Below are positions 33,433 through 43,720 of a DNA stretch of 44,062 nucleotides, one piece after another. This DNA is from a virus. Taxonomy: Duplodnaviria; Heunggongvirae; Uroviricota; Caudoviricetes. Position numbers and translations under genes: made by a program. The stretch is from the IMG/VR virus record IMGVR_UViG_2529292906_000019, positions 1 to 44,062 of that record; one strand, 5' to 3'. Positions within the stretch are counted from its first letter, which is position 1; every line of letters starts with the position of its first letter. The notes below the pieces were generated by a model, which worked only from the letters and a program-made list of their open reading frames with translations, was not told where the DNA came from and ran no database searches.

Positions 33433-34377
33433 TTACCCCCTGAATCCGGTTGGGATGGTTTTATCTGGCTCAGAAATGCGGTTCACATCCCTTCCCGTTT
33501 TGCGGTCGTTGAGAGCGAACTTCGGTTTGAACAGTCCCTGGTAGCCGTTGGCGATACTGGTGTTGATCACGTCAACCGGGTCATGCCCTGCGTCCAGGCA
33601 TGCCTTCAGCAACTTGAACGCTTTGGTGACCGTCAGTTCGGTCTTGATGGCTTTGCCAGACTGCTGGCGATAGGAAACCCACTCACCCCAGGACACAGAA
33701 TCAAGCCACTCAGGAACGAGAATTGTCAGCGGGTCAAACTTCACCTTCCCCCCTGGGGGATTAGAGGGGGTTAGATCTGTTTTTATATTTGTCTTTGGAA
33801 GAATGTCTTTGGTGTTCCCTGTTTTCAGGGATACCTCTCCCTGTTTTTGGGGATGGTTATCCCCGTTTTCAGGGATAGCTGAAGGGGTAAAATTGCTATC
33901 CCTGAATTCGGGGATGGTAATAACCCATGTAACAACTTCAGCAGCAGGAAACACCGCTGGACACTTCATGCAATTTGGCTTGGTATACGCCCATTTATCC
34001 AGGCTGGTATTAATCCCAATGTATCTGGTTTGCCCAATGCGGCGCAGGATGATGATGTTCCGATAGGCTAGGCTCAGCACGGCTTCTGAGACGTGTTTCA
34101 CCTTAAGCGTCGTTTTGTCTGCAATGAGGCTATTGGCGATGCGGTCCGAACTCTTGGACCAGCCATAGGTCAGACGAACGATAGCGTTCAGCACCCGGAA
34201 CTCACGCCCGGATAGTTCGACGATACACAGGGCATCCTGAATCTGGTTGGCCAGGCGCAAATAGCCTTTCTCCAGCTCAGCCATGCTGCTCTCCTGTTTC
34301 CCCTGCTGCGTGGGGAATTTGAATATTTCAGCGGTATTTGACATACTGTTCTCCGCAATTACCTTCCGTTTTTGCAC
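33433..34377 (-). CDS. replication initiator, lambda O-like
   Basis: 314-aa ORF that contains an iteron array plus an AT-rich tract in its coding sequence, as for lambda ori in O; followed by the DnaC-like gene. Confidence 0.7.
   Translation of the reverse strand: MQKRKVIAENSMSNTAEIFKFPTQQGKQESSMAELEKGYLRLANQIQDALCIVELSGREFRVLNAIVRLTYGWSKSSDRIANSLIADKTTLKVKHVSEAVLSLAYRNIIILRRIGQTRYIGINTSLDKWAYTKPNCMKCPAVFPAAEVVTWVITIPEFRDSNFTPSAIPENGDNHPQKQGEVSLKTGNTKDILPKTNIKTDLTPSNPPGGKVKFDPLTILVPEWLDSVSWGEWVSYRQQSGKAIKTELTVTKAFKLLKACLDAGHDPVDVINTSIANGYQGLFKPKFALNDRKTGRDVNRISEPDKTIPTGFRG
33816..33915. repeat. origin iterons, four ~18-bp inverted-repeat units
   Basis: TCCCTGTTTTCAGGGATA, TCCCTGTTTTTGGGGAT, ATCCCCGTTTTCAGGGATA, ATCCCTGAATTCGGGGAT, with an adjacent AT-rich tract at 33770..33815. 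Confidence 0.7.
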
Positions 34378-34428: not shown

Positions 34429-34968
34429 TCATACAGCCCCCAGCATCAACTGCACCATCTCCATCAGCGGACCGGTTAAGCCAGGGTCAACGCGGTACAT
34501 CTCCACGATCCCCTCGCTCAGCTCTTTCAGCTTCTGATGACGCGGCGCATCCATTGCGACAGCTATCTTCGCTTCGCTGGTTTCCTTCTCCATACGTGCC
34601 AGACGGGCCATGACGTTGTCTTCTGGCAGCAGGCGACTGCGGTACACAATCGGCAGAACGGCGAGGATTGCAGGAGTCAGCTGGCGGACGTTCTCGCGGT
34701 AACGTTCGCTGTTGAAATGGTTATCCAGGAAGCGGAAAAGCTTCTGGCGCTTTCGGCAGAGATCGTCAGGGAAAGTGATGTCATCACCACCCTGTGCCTG
34801 GTACTCTTCGATGATCAGAGCCGTAACTACGTCCTGACCATCGGCACCAGCCCAGGAGCGGACCGCGTCACGAATATCTTCGTGGCTCGGCCCCCTACGT
34901 GCTTGAGCGCGATTTATCATTACCCCTTGAGTAATGTCGCTATCATTCTGGTAAGTAAGTGTCTGCAT
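34429..34968 (-). CDS. YdaT-like protein
   Basis: 179 aa; IIEEYQAQGGDDITFP and RQLTPAILAVLPIVYRSRL parallel E. coli Rac YdaT ITEEYLRQGGGELP and QKLIPAILAILPRELRHRL recalled from memory. Confidence 0.5.
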   Translation of the reverse strand: MQTLTYQNDSDITQGVMINRAQARRGPSHEDIRDAVRSWAGADGQDVVTALIIEEYQAQGGDDITFPDDLCRKRQKLFRFLDNHFNSERYRENVRQLTPAILAVLPIVYRSRLLPEDNVMARLARMEKETSEAKIAVAMDAPRHQKLKELSEGIVEMYRVDPGLTGPLMEMVQLMLGAV

Positions 34969-34979
34969 GGTTAATGCTC

Positions 34980-35189
34980 CTACTTTGGTAAACCGTCAGT
35001 GGGATTTGGGTAGAGATCTGGGCGCAGCTCGTGTGGCGTTACGCCGGTTGCCTCAAACACTGGTAGCACTCGTTCGGCAGGAATTCCTTTACGGCGCCAC
35101 AGCGAAACAGCCATTTTTGAAACGCCGATCAAAGCTCCAAGCGCGCTGGCCGAGCCAGATCGGAGAATTGCATTTTCAATACCAGTCAT
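34980..35189 (-). CDS. Cro/YdaS-like HTH DNA-binding protein
   Basis: 69 aa with an HTH segment (ALIGVSKMAVSLWRRKGIP); perfect SD GGAGG before the ATG; divergent from the repressor. Confidence 0.6.
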   Translation of the reverse strand: MTGIENAILRSGSASALGALIGVSKMAVSLWRRKGIPAERVLPVFEATGVTPHELRPDLYPNPTDGLPK

Positions 35190-35210
35190 AGGACCTCCTT
35201 AAGTGAGCAA

Positions 35211-35229
35211 AGTAAAGCACCAATTTACT
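35211..35229. promoter_or_regulatory. operator (right), 19-bp AGTAAAGCACCAATTTACT
   Basis: Inverted repeat AGTAAA-N7-TTTACT between the divergent cro-like and repressor genes; near-identical in reverse orientation at 36454..36472; adjacent palindrome TATTGAGTCAATA at 35229..35241. Confidence 0.5.
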
Positions 35230-35283
35230 ATTGAGTCAATACACGCCTGCCTACCAACTGGTAAAGCTATTGTTTACAATCCC

Positions 35284-35670
35284 TACATGAACAAAAAAGA
35301 TCCTAACCAGAGCCTTATTTCCAGGCTGACTGAATTGAATGGCAAAGGCTTCTCAAAAACAGAGATGGCCAAGGTTGCTAATGTCAGTAAGCAGGCGGTA
35401 ACCGGATGGTTTAGAACCGGTAAAATCAGCAAAGAATCTGCCCTCGCTGTTGCAGACGCTGCTGGCGTGTCTGTGCCATGGCTACTCGGCGAGGATGTTG
35501 GAGAGAAAGACGGCCTTAAGCCGGACGAACAGCGCCTGCTGGAGCTCTATCGCCAGTTGCCGGAAGAAGAGCAGCAGAACATGCTCCGCATCTTTGCCAT
35601 TCGCCTGAAAGAGTTGGACGAGTTGTATGAGAAATACATGAAGGGGCGTATTCGTTCTCAGGGAGAGTGA
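35284..35670 (+). CDS. prophage repressor, HTH XRE-type (RacR/CI-like, no peptidase domain)
   Basis: HTH segment ...FSKTEMAKVANVSKQAVTGWF...; start set at the internal ATG 35284 so that the operator lies in the intergenic region; the track ORF starts at GTG 35203. Confidence 0.5.
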   Translation, partial: YMNKKDPNQSLISRLTELNGKGFSKTEMAKVANVSKQAVTGWFRTGKISKESALAVADAAGVSVPWLLGEDVGEKDGLKPDEQRLLELYRQLPEEEQQNMLRIFAIRLKELDELYEKYMKGRIRSQGE

Positions 35671-35839
35671 TGTGTTCTGGTCGGAGAATGGCTGGTAGTG
35701 AACGGCGTGGCATTGCGCCAAGGCAATTAATTCAACCTCTTAGTCGCCATATCCCATAAAGGATTCCGGCTAAATTTGTTACCGATACTACCAATGCAAT
35801 TGTGGCAAAAATATCTGAACCGGACATAAGGAAATCTCC

Positions 35840-36271
35840 ATGAGTTATAGCGACATTGTTGCAACTATTGCAATGATTGTATCTATCACTGCTGTTCCTG
35901 CAAGTGGTTATTTAAGCTATCGTTACGCAATTGAGGGAGAAAAGAGGAAGGAGTGGAATGGTGTTGTTGAGCCAATTCTTGAGTATTTAGAGGGGCATGA
36001 ACTATTTCTAAGCAAAAAGAAATGCCCTGATTATACTTTCCACAGCTTTCCATCAAAAAACTGGGATGCAGCGATTAGAAGATCTAAAGATCCAAAAAAA
36101 TACCAACAAGCGCTTCAAGATTACCGGTCAGTATTGAATGAAATAAAAACATCTCCGGCACCAGTTATTTATTTTGGGCAATCTGAGTCTGAGCGCGAGG
36201 AGTGGATTGACCGATACCCTGACGGGATAAACAGGCTTAATGAACTAATGACAATTCTAGCGTTGAAATAA
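35840..36271 (+). CDS. membrane-anchored protein in the rex/sieB position (candidate exclusion protein)
   Basis: 143 aa with an N-terminal TM helix (IVATIAMIVSITAVPASGYL); RBS AAGGAA; same orientation as the repressor; followed by two tandem terminators. Confidence 0.5.
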   Translation: MSYSDIVATIAMIVSITAVPASGYLSYRYAIEGEKRKEWNGVVEPILEYLEGHELFLSKKKCPDYTFHSFPSKNWDAAIRRSKDPKKYQQALQDYRSVLNEIKTSPAPVIYFGQSESEREEWIDRYPDGINRLNELMTILALK

Positions 36272-36396
36272 CCCGGCCACCGAGCCGGGTTTTTTATACC
36301 CCCCACCGGATCGCCTCCAAGCGTCTGCCCCGAACTCCCCAATCCCGGCCTTAGCGTCGGGATTTTTTTTGTCTTCTATTGCTCAATTTCATACTC
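36272..36396 (+). terminator. two tandem rho-independent terminators
   Basis: CCCGGCCACCGAGCCGGG followed by TTTTTT, then ATCCCGGCCTTAGCGTCGGGAT followed by TTTTTTTT. Confidence 0.6.
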
Positions 36397-36453
36397 CAAA
36401 ACAATCAGGTAAAGCATTGCTGTACTTTTTATCACCTCATTGCTTGACCATTT

Positions 36454-36472
36454 AGTAAAGTGGTGATTTACT
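36454..36472. promoter_or_regulatory. operator (left), 19-bp AGTAAAGTGGTGATTTACT
   Basis: Matches the reverse complement of the right operator with two mismatches; lies at the start of the + strand early-left operon. Confidence 0.5.
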
Positions 36473-36718
36473 AGTATCACCAAGACGCACCACGAACCAC
36501 TCAGGCAGGACGCCCACGAAGTAGCCGCCGACGGCATATGAATAGTCGGATGAGGTGGTTAGATTAACGCGCATCAGGTTTAACGCTCAGCTGGCCGGCT
36601 ATAAGGCAAAACAGAAGTGAGCTTCGCGGTGGTGAACTGCAGAGTTAAATCGCTCAACTGTGAAGATCAGCACCACGGCACCACCAGCGAAGTTCACTCA
36701 GCAATAGTGGAGAACATC

Positions 36719-36925
36719 ATGGTTCATCAGCACTACGGTACACAGACGGTAAACCGCGGCGCGGTTCAGCCTGGAATGCTCGTCAAACACAAGGATTCAA
36801 CCTGGACGGCATCAGCTAATGCTCGTGGTCGTTTGTATCTGCATCGCGGCGTTGAGATGACTTACACCAGGGATTTGCTGGTTGAAGTTTATCTGAACGG
36901 TCTGGGGAATGGCCTCAGCCATTAA
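36719..36925 (+). CDS. small early protein (68 aa), unknown
   Basis: ATG at 36719 preceded by GGAG; first gene of the early-left operon; the track ORF extends upstream to a GTG at 36617. Confidence 0.35.
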   Translation: MVHQHYGTQTVNRGAVQPGMLVKHKDSTWTASANARGRLYLHRGVEMTYTRDLLVEVYLNGLGNGLSH

Positions 36926-36936
36926 CGGAGAGTGTC

Positions 36937-37098
36937 ATGCAAGACAAGAAATGCGGTTACTGCAGCAAGCCGGTTAAACCGGAAGAAGTAATCAAAGGCA
37001 CCCTTCTCTACCGCAACGGCTCACTGCTGGCGCGCAAAGAGAAAGAGTACTGTTCCAGACGTTGCGCTTCGCACGACCAGATGGCTCACGAAGGCTAA
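36937..37098 (+). CDS. small zinc-ribbon-like protein (53 aa)
   Basis: MQDKKCGYCSKP...EYCSRRCASHDQ with two CxxC-type pairs; RBS GGAG 6 nt upstream; below the ORF-track length cutoff. Confidence 0.4.
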   Translation: MQDKKCGYCSKPVKPEEVIKGTLLYRNGSLLARKEKEYCSRRCASHDQMAHEG

Positions 37099-37237: not shown

Positions 37238-37879
37238 ATGGAATTCTTTAATGTGGTTAAAGCCACTCAGAAATCCGGAAAACAAGATGCAGTGGTCTGG
37301 TTCACTGCGAAAACCGAGGCTCGCGCCAACCTGCAACTGGACGTTGCACTGGAAGATGCTGGCATCGAAATGGGTCGCGGTAAGGACTACGCCAAACCGA
37401 TTCGCACAGATTTTCCTGTTGTTGATGACCTGCCAGAAGAAGGCGAAGTTGATTTCACATGGTGCGAACGTTACGAACTGGCCGAAGACCAGCGCACCTG
37501 GAATGTTAAGCAACAGGCTGAAGATGAGTCTGTCGACGACGCCGATACTGAAGACAGCACCGCAGAAGAATCTCAGCAGTCAGAGCAGCCGAACCTGATC
37601 GTCGTTGCCACCCTGCCATTCCGTCAGCGCGTACTGGCTCAGTTCATCGGTGATGGTGAATATCTCTATCACGTCGACGCTGGGCAGAAAAACGAGATTG
37701 TCCGCCTTGAGATGGACACTGATAACGCGTACGCCCAAAACCTGCTGCTGGCTGCTGAGAATGTGGAAGCATTCAAAAAAGCCATTGAGCACGATATCCA
37801 TAAAGTCGTGAATGCCGTTAAGAAAGCCTTCCCTGTCGACGGTAAAAACCGGAACTGGCAACAGTTATCCAGTTCCTGA
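37238..37879 (+). CDS. recE: exonuclease VIII (RecE), N-terminal fragment
   Basis: 213 aa; ...TDFPVVDDLPEEGEVDFTWCERYELAEDQRTW matches the E. coli RecE N-terminal region (...[28 protein letters not shown]) from memory; separated from the rest of recE by a frame change near 37844..37850. Confidence 0.65.
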   Translation: MEFFNVVKATQKSGKQDAVVWFTAKTEARANLQLDVALEDAGIEMGRGKDYAKPIRTDFPVVDDLPEEGEVDFTWCERYELAEDQRTWNVKQQAEDESVDDADTEDSTAEESQQSEQPNLIVVATLPFRQRVLAQFIGDGEYLYHVDAGQKNEIVRLEMDTDNAYAQNLLLAAENVEAFKKAIEHDIHKVVNAVKKAFPVDGKNRNWQQLSSS

Positions 37880-37881
37880 CG

Positions 37882-39996
37882 GTGTGGTTCAACACTGATT
37901 ACATCGACCGTGGCATCCTGGCGCGCGAATGGACCGCCGGTAACCGCATCAGCAATGTTCAGCGCACCGATTCCGGTACCAACGCCGACGGCGGATATGT
38001 CACTGACCGTGGCGAAAATGCTTACCACACGCTGGATACTCTGGATTTAGAGATTGCCTGCGCCCTGCTCCCAATGGACTTTAACCATCTTGAAATCCCG
38101 GGCAGCATCCACCGCCGCGCCAAAGAGATAGTGGCCAACAAAGAACAACCATGGAAATCATGGAGCAGCATCCTGCGCAATCAGCCTGGCGTTCTGTCGG
38201 TAAACCGCGCTGCCATCTTCAATCTGGTGCGCATCGCGCCGGAAAATATTCACCTGACGCCAGTTGCACATCTGGAGTTCGTTAACCAGACCATGACAGC
38301 TGAGTTCAATTCAGCAACTGAGTTGCTGCCGTTGCCAGTAGCTGGCGCGCAGGAACCAAACAGTCAGGATCAACCTCGAGTTGAGAATCTTGGCGCTGGA
38401 ATTTTCTCCATAGAAAGCCTGATGGGTGATCAACAACCAAAAACAGATGACCGTTCACCACTTAATGAGGAAACCACCAGCGATGTGCAGATGGAAGAAA
38501 CTGTCAGTGATGAAGAACAGGCTGGTAATGAAGTGCAGCCAGGCGAAAGCAGTCTGGAAACTGGTGAAGAGTCACATACCGGCCAGCAAGCCGATGTAAA
38601 CCAGAATGCGGACTCTGTCGTCCAAAATAGCGATTCTGTAAACCAAGCCGAACCAGTTGCTGCGCAAACCGAGCCAGAAGCGAAATCTGACGAACCGGCT
38701 GTTGTGTATCCCGCTTACTTCGAGCCTGGGCGCTATGAAGGTCTGCCGAACGAGGTTTATCACGCAGCGAACGGGATCAGCAGCACGCAGGTAAAAGATG
38801 CCCGCGTCAGCCTGATGTACTTCAACGCACGCCACGTCGCCAAAACGATCACCAAAGAGCGTTCTCCAGTTCTGGACATGGGTAACCTGGTGCATGGACT
38901 GGCGTTGCAGCCAGAGCAGCTTGATGAAGAGTTCAGCGTTGAACCGATGATCCCGGAAGGCGCGTTCACCACGACGGCAACAATCCGCGCGTTTATCGAT
39001 GAGTACAACGCAGGTCTGCCAGAGCAATTGAGCGCCGACGACATAAAGACATTGCTCGAGGAATACAACGCCACTCTGCCTGCTCAGGTACCACTGGGTG
39101 GTTCAGTCGAGGAAACTGGCCAGAGCTACATGTCGCTGCCAGAAGAGTACCAGCGGATCGAAGCGGACCAGAAGCAGACCGCAGCGGCGATGAAAGCCTG
39201 CATCAAGGAATACAACGCCAATCTGCCTGCCCAGGTGAAAACCAGTGGTAGCCGTGATGCCTTACTCGAGCAGCTGGCAATCATCAATCCTGACCTGGTG
39301 GCGCAGGAAGCGCAGAAACCGCAACCGCTGAAAGTGTCCGGTACCAAAGCGGATCTGATTCAGACCGTGAAGTCTGTGAAACCAGACGCCGTCTTTGCCG
39401 ACGAACTGCTGGATGCGTGGCGCGAGAATCCGCAAGGGAAAGTACTGGTCACCCGCCAGCAACTGAGCACCGCACTGGCCATTCAGAAAGCCCTGCTACA
39501 GCACCCAACTGCCGGGATGCTGCTTCAGTACCCGAGTCGCGCCGTTGAGGTCAGCTATTTTGGCTTTGACGATGAAACCGGTCTGGAAGTCCGCGTTCGT
39601 CCAGACCTTGAGATCGACCTGGACGGAGTGCGCATCGGTGCCGACCTGAAAACCATCAGCATGTGGAACATTAAGCAGGAAGGCCTGCGCGCCAAGCTGC
39701 ACCGGGAAATCATCGACCGTGACTACCATCTGAGCGCCGCCATGTATTGCGAGACCGCAGCACTGGACCAGTTCTTCTGGATTTTCGTCAACAAGGACGA
39801 GAACTACCACTGGATCGCCATCATCGAGGCATCCGCCGAACTGCTGGAGCTGGGCATGCTTGAGTACCGCAAATCAATGCGTGCTATCGCTACCGGCTTT
39901 GACACTGGCGAATGGCCAGCGCCCATCACAGCTGATTATACCGACGAACTGAACGACTTCGACCTGCGCCGCCTTGAAGCGCTGCGTCTGGCTTAA
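37882..39996 (+). CDS. recE: exonuclease VIII (RecE), central and C-terminal nuclease part
   Basis: 704 aa from a GTG; ...WFNTDYIDRGILAREWTAGNRISNVQRTDSG... matches RecE (...[31 protein letters not shown]); the C-terminal region contains the ...GRYEGLPNEVYH... segment; frame is open upstream to 37846. Confidence 0.7.
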   Translation: MWFNTDYIDRGILAREWTAGNRISNVQRTDSGTNADGGYVTDRGENAYHTLDTLDLEIACALLPMDFNHLEIPGSIHRRAKEIVANKEQPWKSWSSILRNQPGVLSVNRAAIFNLVRIAPENIHLTPVAHLEFVNQTMTAEFNSATELLPLPVAGAQEPNSQDQPRVENLGAGIFSIESLMGDQQPKTDDRSPLNEETTSDVQMEETVSDEEQAGNEVQPGESSLETGEESHTGQQADVNQNADSVVQNSDSVNQAEPVAAQTEPEAKSDEPAVVYPAYFEPGRYEGLPNEVYHAANGISSTQVKDARVSLMYFNARHVAKTITKERSPVLDMGNLVHGLALQPEQLDEEFSVEPMIPEGAFTTTATIRAFIDEYNAGLPEQLSADDIKTLLEEYNATLPAQVPLGGSVEETGQSYMSLPEEYQRIEADQKQTAAAMKACIKEYNANLPAQVKTSGSRDALLEQLAIINPDLVAQEAQKPQPLKVSGTKADLIQTVKSVKPDAVFADELLDAWRENPQGKVLVTRQQLSTALAIQKALLQHPTAGMLLQYPSRAVEVSYFGFDDETGLEVRVRPDLEIDLDGVRIGADLKTISMWNIKQEGLRAKLHREIIDRDYHLSAAMYCETAALDQFFWIFVNKDENYHWIAIIEASAELLELGMLEYRKSMRAIATGFDTGEWPAPITADYTDELNDFDLRRLEALRLA

Positions 39997-43455: not shown

Positions 43456-43485
43456 AGATAAAAAGAGACCGAATACGATTCCTGT
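43456..43485. repeat. prophage attachment site attR (integrase side), within the sdsR 3' end
   Basis: AGATAAAAAGAGACCGAATACGATTCCTGT; direct repeat of 1064..1093 with one mismatch. Confidence 0.6.
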
Positions 43486-43562
43486 ATTCGGTCCAGGGAA
43501 ATGGCTCTTGGGAGAGAGCCGTGCGCTAAAAGTTGGCATTAATGCAGGCTTAGTTGCCTTGC
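43458..43562 (-). ncRNA. sdsR: small RNA SdsR (RyeB)
   Basis: The minus strand reads GCAAGGCAACTAAGCCTGCATTAATGCC...GACCGAATACAGGAATCGTATTCGGTCTCTTTTT, matching SdsR as recalled, with a terminal hairpin and U-tract; CTATTCTTAA (sigma-S type -10) lies just upstream at ~43566..43576. Confidence 0.75.
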
Positions 43563-43720
43563 CCTTTAAGAATAGATGACGACGCCAGGTTTTCCAGTTT
43601 GCGTGCAAAATGGTCAATAAAAAGCGCGGTAGTCATCAGCTTAAATGTTAAAAACCGCCCGTTCTGGTGAAAGAACTGAGGCGGTTTTTTTATTGGAAAT
43701 CAAAAGGCTATTTTAGGTAA

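Follow-up and report, generated by a model that had tools for sequence, protein, structure and literature searches.

The locus discussed here raises the question of what occupies the interval between the repressor gene and the early-left control region in the Caudoviricetes record IMGVR_UViG_2529292906_000019 of IMG/VR, which was analysed over its whole stretch of 44,062 nucleotides (nt) and is referred to as the window. An earlier note, made from the sequence of the window, had placed a single gene for a membrane-anchored protein in this interval (35840-36271, the large gene) and proposed it as a candidate superinfection exclusion or abortive-infection gene. The large gene does not stand alone; we found it to be paired head-to-head with a conserved 31-codon membrane-peptide gene that had been overlooked (the small gene, running from 35827 to 35732), and the real object is therefore a conserved two-gene membrane cassette linked to lysogeny repressors (Table 1). 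It is solely the position of the large gene that would suggest a function in superinfection exclusion or abortive infection, and the pairing with a small membrane-peptide gene changes the likely mechanism. With a probability of roughly 0.4, we read the cassette as a membrane module, expressed in the lysogen, for phage exclusion or abortive infection.

The large gene is an open reading frame (ORF) with an ATG start encoding 143 amino acids (aa). It is a genuine gene and not a chance reading frame, because a word-indexed search retrieved 58 relatives of its product and an exhaustive profile search gave 185 cluster representatives at E <= 0.001, the matches covering most of each sequence. Nearly all of the homologues are 120-155 aa long, with a few shorter ones that are apparently truncated. 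The large gene also has a ribosome-binding site of its own, as the earlier note had said. The only database family found to contain the large protein was phrog_34525, a PHROG without a function, which was matched over the full length (E = 3e-97) and takes in the close subgroup only, the distant members being missed. There was no match for the large protein in Pfam at E <= 0.1, with two stray matches among 59 family members, and there were 0 matches in PADLOC-DB v2, with seven single-member stray matches among 59 relatives; sequence searches against NCBIfam and the solved structures returned nothing meaningful. The profile search proposed in the earlier note has thus matched no named family, in line with its statement that the protein has no obvious one, and no description of the large-gene family or of the cassette was found in the literature.

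The note's description of a single N-terminal transmembrane helix followed by about 115 residues was borne out by the presence of one hydrophobic segment, at residues 6-24 (mean Kyte-Doolittle value 1.76), with no second one downstream. An N-tail of 5 residues precedes a transmembrane helix that spans about residues 6-27; about 115 residues lie beyond it, with an invariant juxtamembrane R36-K37-E38-x-N40 motif, the typical form of which in the family alignments is (G/R)(E/D)KRKE(W/F)N. Structure prediction, the other computational check that had been proposed, gave an AlphaFold2 model with a predicted local distance difference test (pLDDT) score of 81.8, in which residues 3-58 form one continuous helix and three further helices pack into a four-helix-bundle-like C-terminal domain. 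As lysine and arginine (K+R) are in excess after the helix (4.2 in the C-flank vs 0.4 in the N-flank, and C > N in 57 of 59 proteins), the large protein is predicted to be oriented N-out/C-in with its bundle in the cytoplasm. The N-terminal approximately 50 residues of the family are 74-86% identical and the C-terminal approximately 90 residues fall to <20% identity, a conserved N-terminus with a diverging C-terminal domain that would fit a specificity domain in an arms race. The guanine-plus-cytosine (GC) fraction over the large gene is 0.38-0.42, compared to approximately 0.50-0.53 in the flanks.

The ATG codons of the two genes lie head-to-head, 12 nt apart, and the 12-nt spacer AAGGAAATCTCC (35828-35839) holds the ribosome-binding sites of both. 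To follow this arrangement, 96 related loci were collected and their ORFs called, with one family gene per locus. A small ORF at a matching offset (-12 or -13) was found in 88 of the 96 by motif search and in approximately 91 with looser criteria, and GGAG or GAGG is kept ahead of it across related loci. The homologues of the small gene are 31-37 codons long, are hydrophobic and fall into several sequence subfamilies, which share A-L-x-x-S-x-T-N-(L/A) followed by a tryptophan and basic residues. The small gene is protein-coding and under purifying selection: its ratio of non-synonymous to synonymous differences (pN/pS, Nei-Gojobori) is 0.26 in its own frame, the two remaining same-strand frames gave 0.97 and 1.60 and the opposite strand gave 0.45-2.07. 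Its copies differ chiefly at third codon positions. The distant loci that are linked to Mnt-type repressors, described below, also have a divergent hydrophobic ORF of 30-31 codons at the start of the large gene. In four of these (L101-L104), the ATG of the small ORF overlaps the annotated ATG of the large gene within the palindrome ATGCAT.

The small peptide is predicted to have a single transmembrane helix with an acidic N-tail and a basic C-tail. At 31 aa, with a maximum hydrophobicity of 2.11 over 17 residues, it falls by its size and single helix within the range of small (<60 aa) hydrophobic type I toxins, and its charge bias (K+R of 2.06 on the C-side vs 0.02 on the N-side) predicts the same orientation as that of the large protein. 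In databases the peptide is missing or labelled hypothetical, and it had no family match in profile searches, including those of Pfam and NCBIfam. A 547-aa histidine kinase that shares a database cluster with one 32-aa peptide was unrelated on inspection, the clustering being spurious. The N-termini of the two cassette products are alike, encoded in inverted orientation, with 12 of the first 17 residues identical. A long RNA hairpin hiding the ribosome-binding site of the large gene was considered as the origin of this likeness and rejected, as the folding of the plus-strand RNA of 35671-35960 was no better than that of shuffled sequences (z = +1.07). Where the two arms differ, they do so mostly at synonymous positions, so that the similarity is one between proteins and not an RNA stem.

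As the divergent start codons are 12 nt apart, each promoter has to be within or beyond the other gene, and the 5' ends of the two mRNAs should therefore be complementary. Codons 13-22 of the large gene contain, on the opposite strand, a candidate sigma-70 promoter for the small gene, the hexamers of which (TTGCAG-16-TACAAT) were found at a fixed position in 35 of 52 distinct in-register homologues. Codon choice in this part of the large gene is nearly frozen, with GTA at V14 in 38 of 46, CCT at P20 in 40 of 44 and GCA at A21 in 43 of 51; GCA is fixed at A8, A11, A18 and A21, whereas the invariant A30, G33 and R36 draw on all of their synonymous codons. The synonymous differences (pS) are accordingly lower over codons 1-24 (0.49-0.62) than over codons 25-40 (0.87-1.05). 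Furthermore, in the same three loci (L040, L041 and L052) the -10 hexamer has decayed to TACAAC and the small-gene ATG has become ATT. The fixed hexamers, the frozen codons, the low pS and this joint decay are good but indirect evidence that a promoter of the small gene, or another nucleic-acid element, is embedded in the 5' end of the large gene. The two self-complementary hexamers TTGCAA lie in codons 7-12 of the large gene, in the presumed 5' untranslated region of the small gene, and could pair into a 6-bp stem on the transcript of either gene. The folding of the minus-strand RNA was better than that of shuffled sequences (z = -2.2). Searches against Rfam gave chance-level matches only in 35100-36900 and, over the whole window, the small RNAs SraC/RyeA and SdsR/RyeB at its end and nothing else, with no match to an antitoxin RNA.

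For the large gene, the simplest reading of the sequence is transcription by read-through from the repressor gene, which ends 169 nt upstream in the same orientation. In many of the related loci only about 13 nt separate the repressor stop codon from that of the small gene (a gap of 121 nt made up of 13 + 96 + 12), which leaves no room for a separate unit, and scans detected neither a consensus promoter nor a convincing intrinsic terminator between the repressor gene and the large gene. The plus-strand position that mirrors the candidate small-gene promoter reads TTCCGG...TACTAC, which would be a poor promoter for the large gene, and a consensus scan of both strands of 34900-36950 called no sigma-70-like site. 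Directly after the large gene, the tandem terminators reported in the earlier note were found as two hairpins with T-runs, the second a direct-repeat relative of the first, and a hairpin nearly identical to the first is also present 3' of the homologue in L011; the terminator scan gave 5 intrinsic-terminator-like sites in the region vs 1.9 expected. The note was likewise right in placing the large gene between the repressor and the early-left control region, since copies of a 17-bp operator (GTAAAG-N6-TTTAC, four copies in all) lie on both sides, around the repressor and the large gene.

The linkage to repressors extends to the related loci. In most of the 96, the distance from the end of a co-oriented upstream ORF to the large gene is 45-267 nt (mostly 100-200 nt), and these upstream ORFs form 30 clusters at 70% identity, 23 of them with HTH_3 and 21 with Peptidase_S24. 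The family therefore sits 3' of repressor-type genes, as expected of the rex-type slot that the earlier note had assigned to it, and the comparison gives the argument from position far more weight than it could have in the note; the family follows RacR-type and many lambda-CI-type repressors, together with differing replication and early-left modules. The annotated order in the temperate Edwardsiella phage GF-2 is CI, the large-gene homologue and N. In Providencia, Morganella and Pectobacterium, distant members were found just 3' of, or near, a Mnt/Arc-type repressor in an immI-like region; in L101-L104 (Providencia and Morganella, approximately 3660-4440) the neighbour is a Mnt/Arc ribbon-helix-helix gene, beside arc and antirepressor genes. 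One upstream neighbour (in L014, L018 or similar) matches the conflict-linked Pfam domain EACC1 (Effector Associated Constant Component 1) with E = 4e-9. A few copies of the cassette adjoin integrase or terminase genes instead of a repressor, so that the cassette can be considered a self-contained accessory unit, able to move alone. In one of the copies beside an integrase (L061, 2484-2951), the next gene has an N-terminus that we take to resemble a SocA/Panacea-type antitoxin domain, an arrangement that hints at a small accessory or defence islet. The prophages carrying the cassette are from Escherichia, Salmonella, Klebsiella, Citrobacter, Serratia, Yersinia, Edwardsiella, Pectobacterium, Providencia and Morganella; among deposited phage genomes, it was found in one Klebsiella phage and two Edwardsiella phages and in no others. 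A prophage type of Klebsiella pneumoniae that carries it (P0047) has entries in 129 blocks of the searched collection.

Based on these results, the cassette could be a compact accessory, moron-like unit of two divergent genes that was inserted into the interval from the prophage repressor gene to the left operators. The large gene would most likely have no promoter of its own and would be expressed in lysogens as the distal gene of the repressor operon, like rexAB and presumably bstA, with the two terminators stopping the lysogenic transcript short of the toxic early-left genes. The large protein would reside in the inner membrane, its bundle held at the membrane by the basic RKE(W/F)N collar, and the fast-evolving cytoplasmic bundle could give specificity. 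The transcript of the repressor and the large gene would be antisense to the whole small-gene mRNA, including its ribosome-binding site and start codon. The small peptide may be a membrane-perturbing effector, toxic when free; the lysogenic transcript, the large protein or the two together would restrain it, through RNA-RNA or protein-protein interaction. The suggestion that this would serve defence in the lysogen comes from the precedent of rexAB and bstA in the same slot (PMC8585504). A bolder version, which we consider decidedly unlikely, is that a protein-coding lysogenic transcript doubles as the cis-antisense silencer of a head-to-head membrane-toxin gene; shutting off the repressor promoter, for example by a superinfecting phage, would then free the 31-residue peptide and abort the infection, and the bundle would act as a second gate at the protein level.

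In position the cassette is like rexAB and bstA, in the layout of its small gene it is like a divergent type I toxin locus, and by sequence it is none of them. The rexAB genes of lambda are a two-gene module with a membrane component and are expressed in the lysogen; they share the slot and the orientation of the large gene, 3' of the repressor and before the left operators, and are ended by a terminator (t_imm in lambda). RexB has several membrane helices and RexA is soluble, whereas each product of the cassette has a single helix, and rexA and rexB are in tandem and co-oriented, whereas the cassette genes diverge from start codons that lie 12 nt apart. BstA is soluble, has approximately 300 residues and contains a KilA-N-type domain. 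In the Salmonella prophage BTP1 its gene is also just 3' of the cI repressor gene with a terminator, as the large gene is, but has no divergent small-peptide partner. RexA, RexB and BstA were rejected as homologues of the large protein, since there were no Pfam matches, including none to RexA or RexB; as the large protein has no Pfam family at all, nothing ties it to BstA by sequence, a comparison made via domains and not directly.

The interval between cI and N is a mosaic hotspot, which holds rexAB in lambda and bstA in BTP1; bstA presumably uses the repressor promoter and has its own Rho-independent terminator, and the aba element of BstA is made up of 29 bp upstream and the first 34 bp of the gene (PMC8585504). 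The overlap of aba with the start of bstA has a counterpart in the constrained synonymous sites at the 5' end of the large gene. The earlier note had held that this slot carries genes expressed in the lysogen in lambda, P22 and Rac. This is correct for lambda, where it holds rexAB (PMC8585504), but only loosely so for Rac, as K-12 Rac has 308 nt between racR and ydaG without an annotated gene and its sieB lies further on, on the opposite strand.

The type I loci zorO-orzO, shoB-ohsC and ldr-rdl likewise encode a hydrophobic single-helix peptide of 30-37 residues with an aromatic-basic C-tail, and their partner transcript overlaps the 5' region of the toxin mRNA, as the geometry of the cassette requires. 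The partner in these loci is a small RNA, whereas that in the cassette codes for a conserved protein. The large protein is also broadly like SieA and SieB, prophage inner-membrane proteins of approximately 160 residues, and P22 has orf59a and sieA just after mnt, in the region where the distant family members sit. Both proteins were rejected as homologues. With SieA, hhalign gave a probability of 10% over 23 transmembrane residues only; SieA has three predicted transmembrane helices and the motif FxRYPxEAxxFNK (PMC10883804), whereas the large protein has one hydrophobic segment and the motif is absent from the family alignments. With Rac SieB, the family profile A2 gave a probability of 0.2%, and there was no Pfam match.

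Several observations weigh against a role of the cassette in phage exclusion or abortive infection, or against parts of the mechanism outlined above. The cassette has no homology to the known defence, exclusion or toxin families that were searched, and a fold search with the model of the large protein returned generic helical bundles only. It is rare, being absent from 5,426 complete E. coli genomes, and it is absent from the classical lambdoid phages. The predicted cytoplasmic soluble domain is unlike that of a classical injection blocker and makes it less likely that DNA injection is simply blocked in the periplasm. The large gene is intact in L040, L041 and L052, where the start codon of the small gene is lost, and in contig L089 an intact small ORF is found beside a frameshifted large gene; because these loci have lost one partner and kept the other, a strict toxin-antitoxin dependence is not evident. 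In addition, the promoter candidates are weak matches that were not called by the consensus scan and are backed by conservation only, and the synonymous constraint could stem from translation initiation, an RNA element or an aba-like DNA self-immunity element.

The same features can be explained in other ways. The cassette could be a type I-style toxin-antitoxin module that stabilises the prophage without any anti-phage role, the large-gene mRNA or repressor transcript being a cis-antisense antitoxin whose loss frees the toxin. The hydrophobic peptide with its aromatic-basic C-tail, the obligatory 5' overlap of the two transcripts, the folding of the minus-strand RNA (z = -2.2) and the nucleotide-level constraint within the overlap all agree with this explanation, as does the L061 copy next to an integrase, if its other neighbour is indeed toxin-antitoxin-like as we presume. 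Nevertheless, we regard it as unlikely, though deserving of weight, since no antitoxin RNA in Rfam and no toxin family was matched, the conserved and fast-diversifying cytoplasmic domain of 100 residues is left unexplained, the large gene survives the loss of the small-gene start codon, and killing after the loss of an integrated prophage is an unusual scenario. Another explanation is that the cassette modulates the lysis-lysogeny switch of its own prophage, either by a small-gene promoter convergent into the repressor gene or by membrane proteins that aid the lytic transition. The small gene is convergent with the 3' end of the repressor gene, as close as approximately 13 nt and with no strong terminator between, the cassette is tightly tied to three unrelated kinds of lysogeny repressor, and a role of RexA and RexB in leaving lysogeny is proposed in a preprint, going by its title, 'Bacteriophage lambda RexA and RexB Functions Assist the Transition from Lysogeny to Lytic Growth'. 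The selection on both products at the protein level makes an RNA-only or interference-only role insufficient; moreover, many related prophages do without the cassette, so that it is dispensable for the switch, and it also occurs away from repressors, beside terminase or integrase genes. A switch modulator thus seems quite improbable.

The cassette could also serve lysogenic conversion, with the membrane physiology of the host and not phages as its target; a small protein that regulates a host transporter, sensor kinase or protease would be one example. We consider this very improbable, as the fold matches are generic, the hypervariable C-terminal domain fits a conserved host target poorly and there is no specific link to any host pathway. 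Finally, the hydrophobic segment of the large protein could be a cleavable signal peptide (V-P-A|S-G); the mature product would then be a soluble helical protein of the periplasm and would stop incoming phage at the envelope. The near-invariant AVPASG stretch satisfies the -3/-1 rule, and classical exclusion proteins are periplasmic or outward-facing; however, the N-tail is acidic with no basic residues ahead of the hydrophobic segment, a strong basic cluster follows it, distant members are without any A-x-A site and AlphaFold2 predicts the continuous helix across residues 3-58, so that cleavage is scarcely credible. The membrane module for phage exclusion or abortive infection is the reading of the cassette that we prefer.

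The neighbourhood of the cassette in the window is a Rac-type immunity region (Table 1). The repressor ORF was called, mechanically and in the database, from a GTG at 35203, only 13 nt from the start codon of the cro-like gene. Because the ORF read from this GTG takes in both right operators, the true start is probably the ATG at 35287. There is no obvious Shine-Dalgarno sequence ahead of this ATG, and with this start the repressor mRNA may be nearly leaderless, as that of lambda cI. On the minus strand, two weak terminator-like hairpins at 35511-35589, within the 3' half of the repressor gene, could end the small-gene transcript, although their count is not above the shuffled expectation. The left operators overlap a candidate early-left promoter that would drive kilR, ydaE and recE. 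In many related loci, a convergent ORF for an acidic soluble protein of 67-69 aa follows immediately after the large gene (for example L008 5440-5643, L011 5482-5691 and L012 1695-1904, all on the minus strand), where the window has the two terminators instead.

Table 1. Features of the cassette and of the surrounding immunity region in the window
Feature	Position	Strand	Details
Replication O-like gene	33433-34377	-	ORF; homologous gene in contig L001
ydaT / CII-like gene	34429-34968	-	Profile matches
ydaS / cro-like gene	34980-35189	-	Profile matches
Helix-turn-helix repressor gene, RacR/CI type	35203-35670	+	No S24 domain; Pfam HTH_3, Phage_CI_repr; phrog_8
Right operators	35212-35228 and 35261-35277		GTAAAG-N6-TTTAC repeats next to the ydaS/cro-like gene
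Small gene	35732..35827	-	31 codons + stop; encodes MSGSDIFATIALVVSVTNLAGILYGIWRLRG
Shine-Dalgarno AAGGA of large gene	35828..35832	+	7 nt ahead of ATG; from sequence
Shine-Dalgarno GGAG of small gene	35836..35839	-	8 nt ahead of ATG
Large gene	35840..36271	+	Predicted 143-aa bitopic membrane protein
TTGCAA-CTA-TTGCAA	35859..35873		Two self-complementary hexamers; palindromes I1/I2/I6; conserved across loci
Candidate sigma-70 promoter of small gene	35876..35903	-	-35 TTGCAG 35898-35903, 16-nt spacer, -10 TACAAT 35876-35881
Intrinsic terminator 1	36270..36297	+	Hairpin 36270-36291, begins inside the large-gene stop codon; then T-run
Intrinsic terminator 2	36341..36374	+	Hairpin 36341-36364; 9-bp stem, then TTTTTTGT
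Left operators	36409-36425 and 36455-36471	+	Same 17-bp operator as on the right, just past the terminators
Candidate early-left promoter	36444-36449 and 36467-36472	+	TTGACC, 17-nt spacer, TTTACT; putative; overlapped by left operators
kilR	36617-36925	+	PHROG-type match
ydaE	36937-37098	+	Match; homologous gene in contig L001
recE	from 37238	+	Profile matches

In the window, recE (37238-39996) is split into ORFs of 213 aa and 704 aa, and an intact RecE of 919 aa is encoded in contig L001, which is 99.98% identical to the window. The window is one A short in an A-run at approximately 37844 within recE, so the split reflects a true frameshift or else an error in sequencing the homopolymer. The window differs from L001 by one further base in a T-run at approximately 32075, with 6 T in the window and 7 in the contig. 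The chromosomal small-RNA pair SraC/RyeA (plus strand) and SdsR/RyeB (minus strand) is at the end of the window (43456-43600), and in L001 yebY and copD come after the genes for the integrase and excisionase. The integration site of the prophage is thus probably beside the SraC/RyeA-SdsR/RyeB locus.

Few parts of a prophage are transcribed in the lysogen. The interval from the repressor to the early-left region is among them, and rexAB and bstA already came from there; the cassette is a third occupant of this slot, unrelated to both. Its small gene is almost always overlooked by annotation pipelines, and whatever its function is, the peptide of 31-37 residues enlarges the catalogue of real small membrane proteins. 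The cassette also illustrates how the candidate promoter of one gene can fix the codons used in its neighbour. If it acts in defence or as a toxin-antitoxin system, it would represent a new family with an unusual layout, in which the ribosome-binding sites of two protein genes share one 12-nt spacer. If the lysogenic transcript were in addition the silencer of the small gene, the survival of the cell would hinge on the continued activity of the repressor promoter, and the cassette would be a new kind of prophage module.

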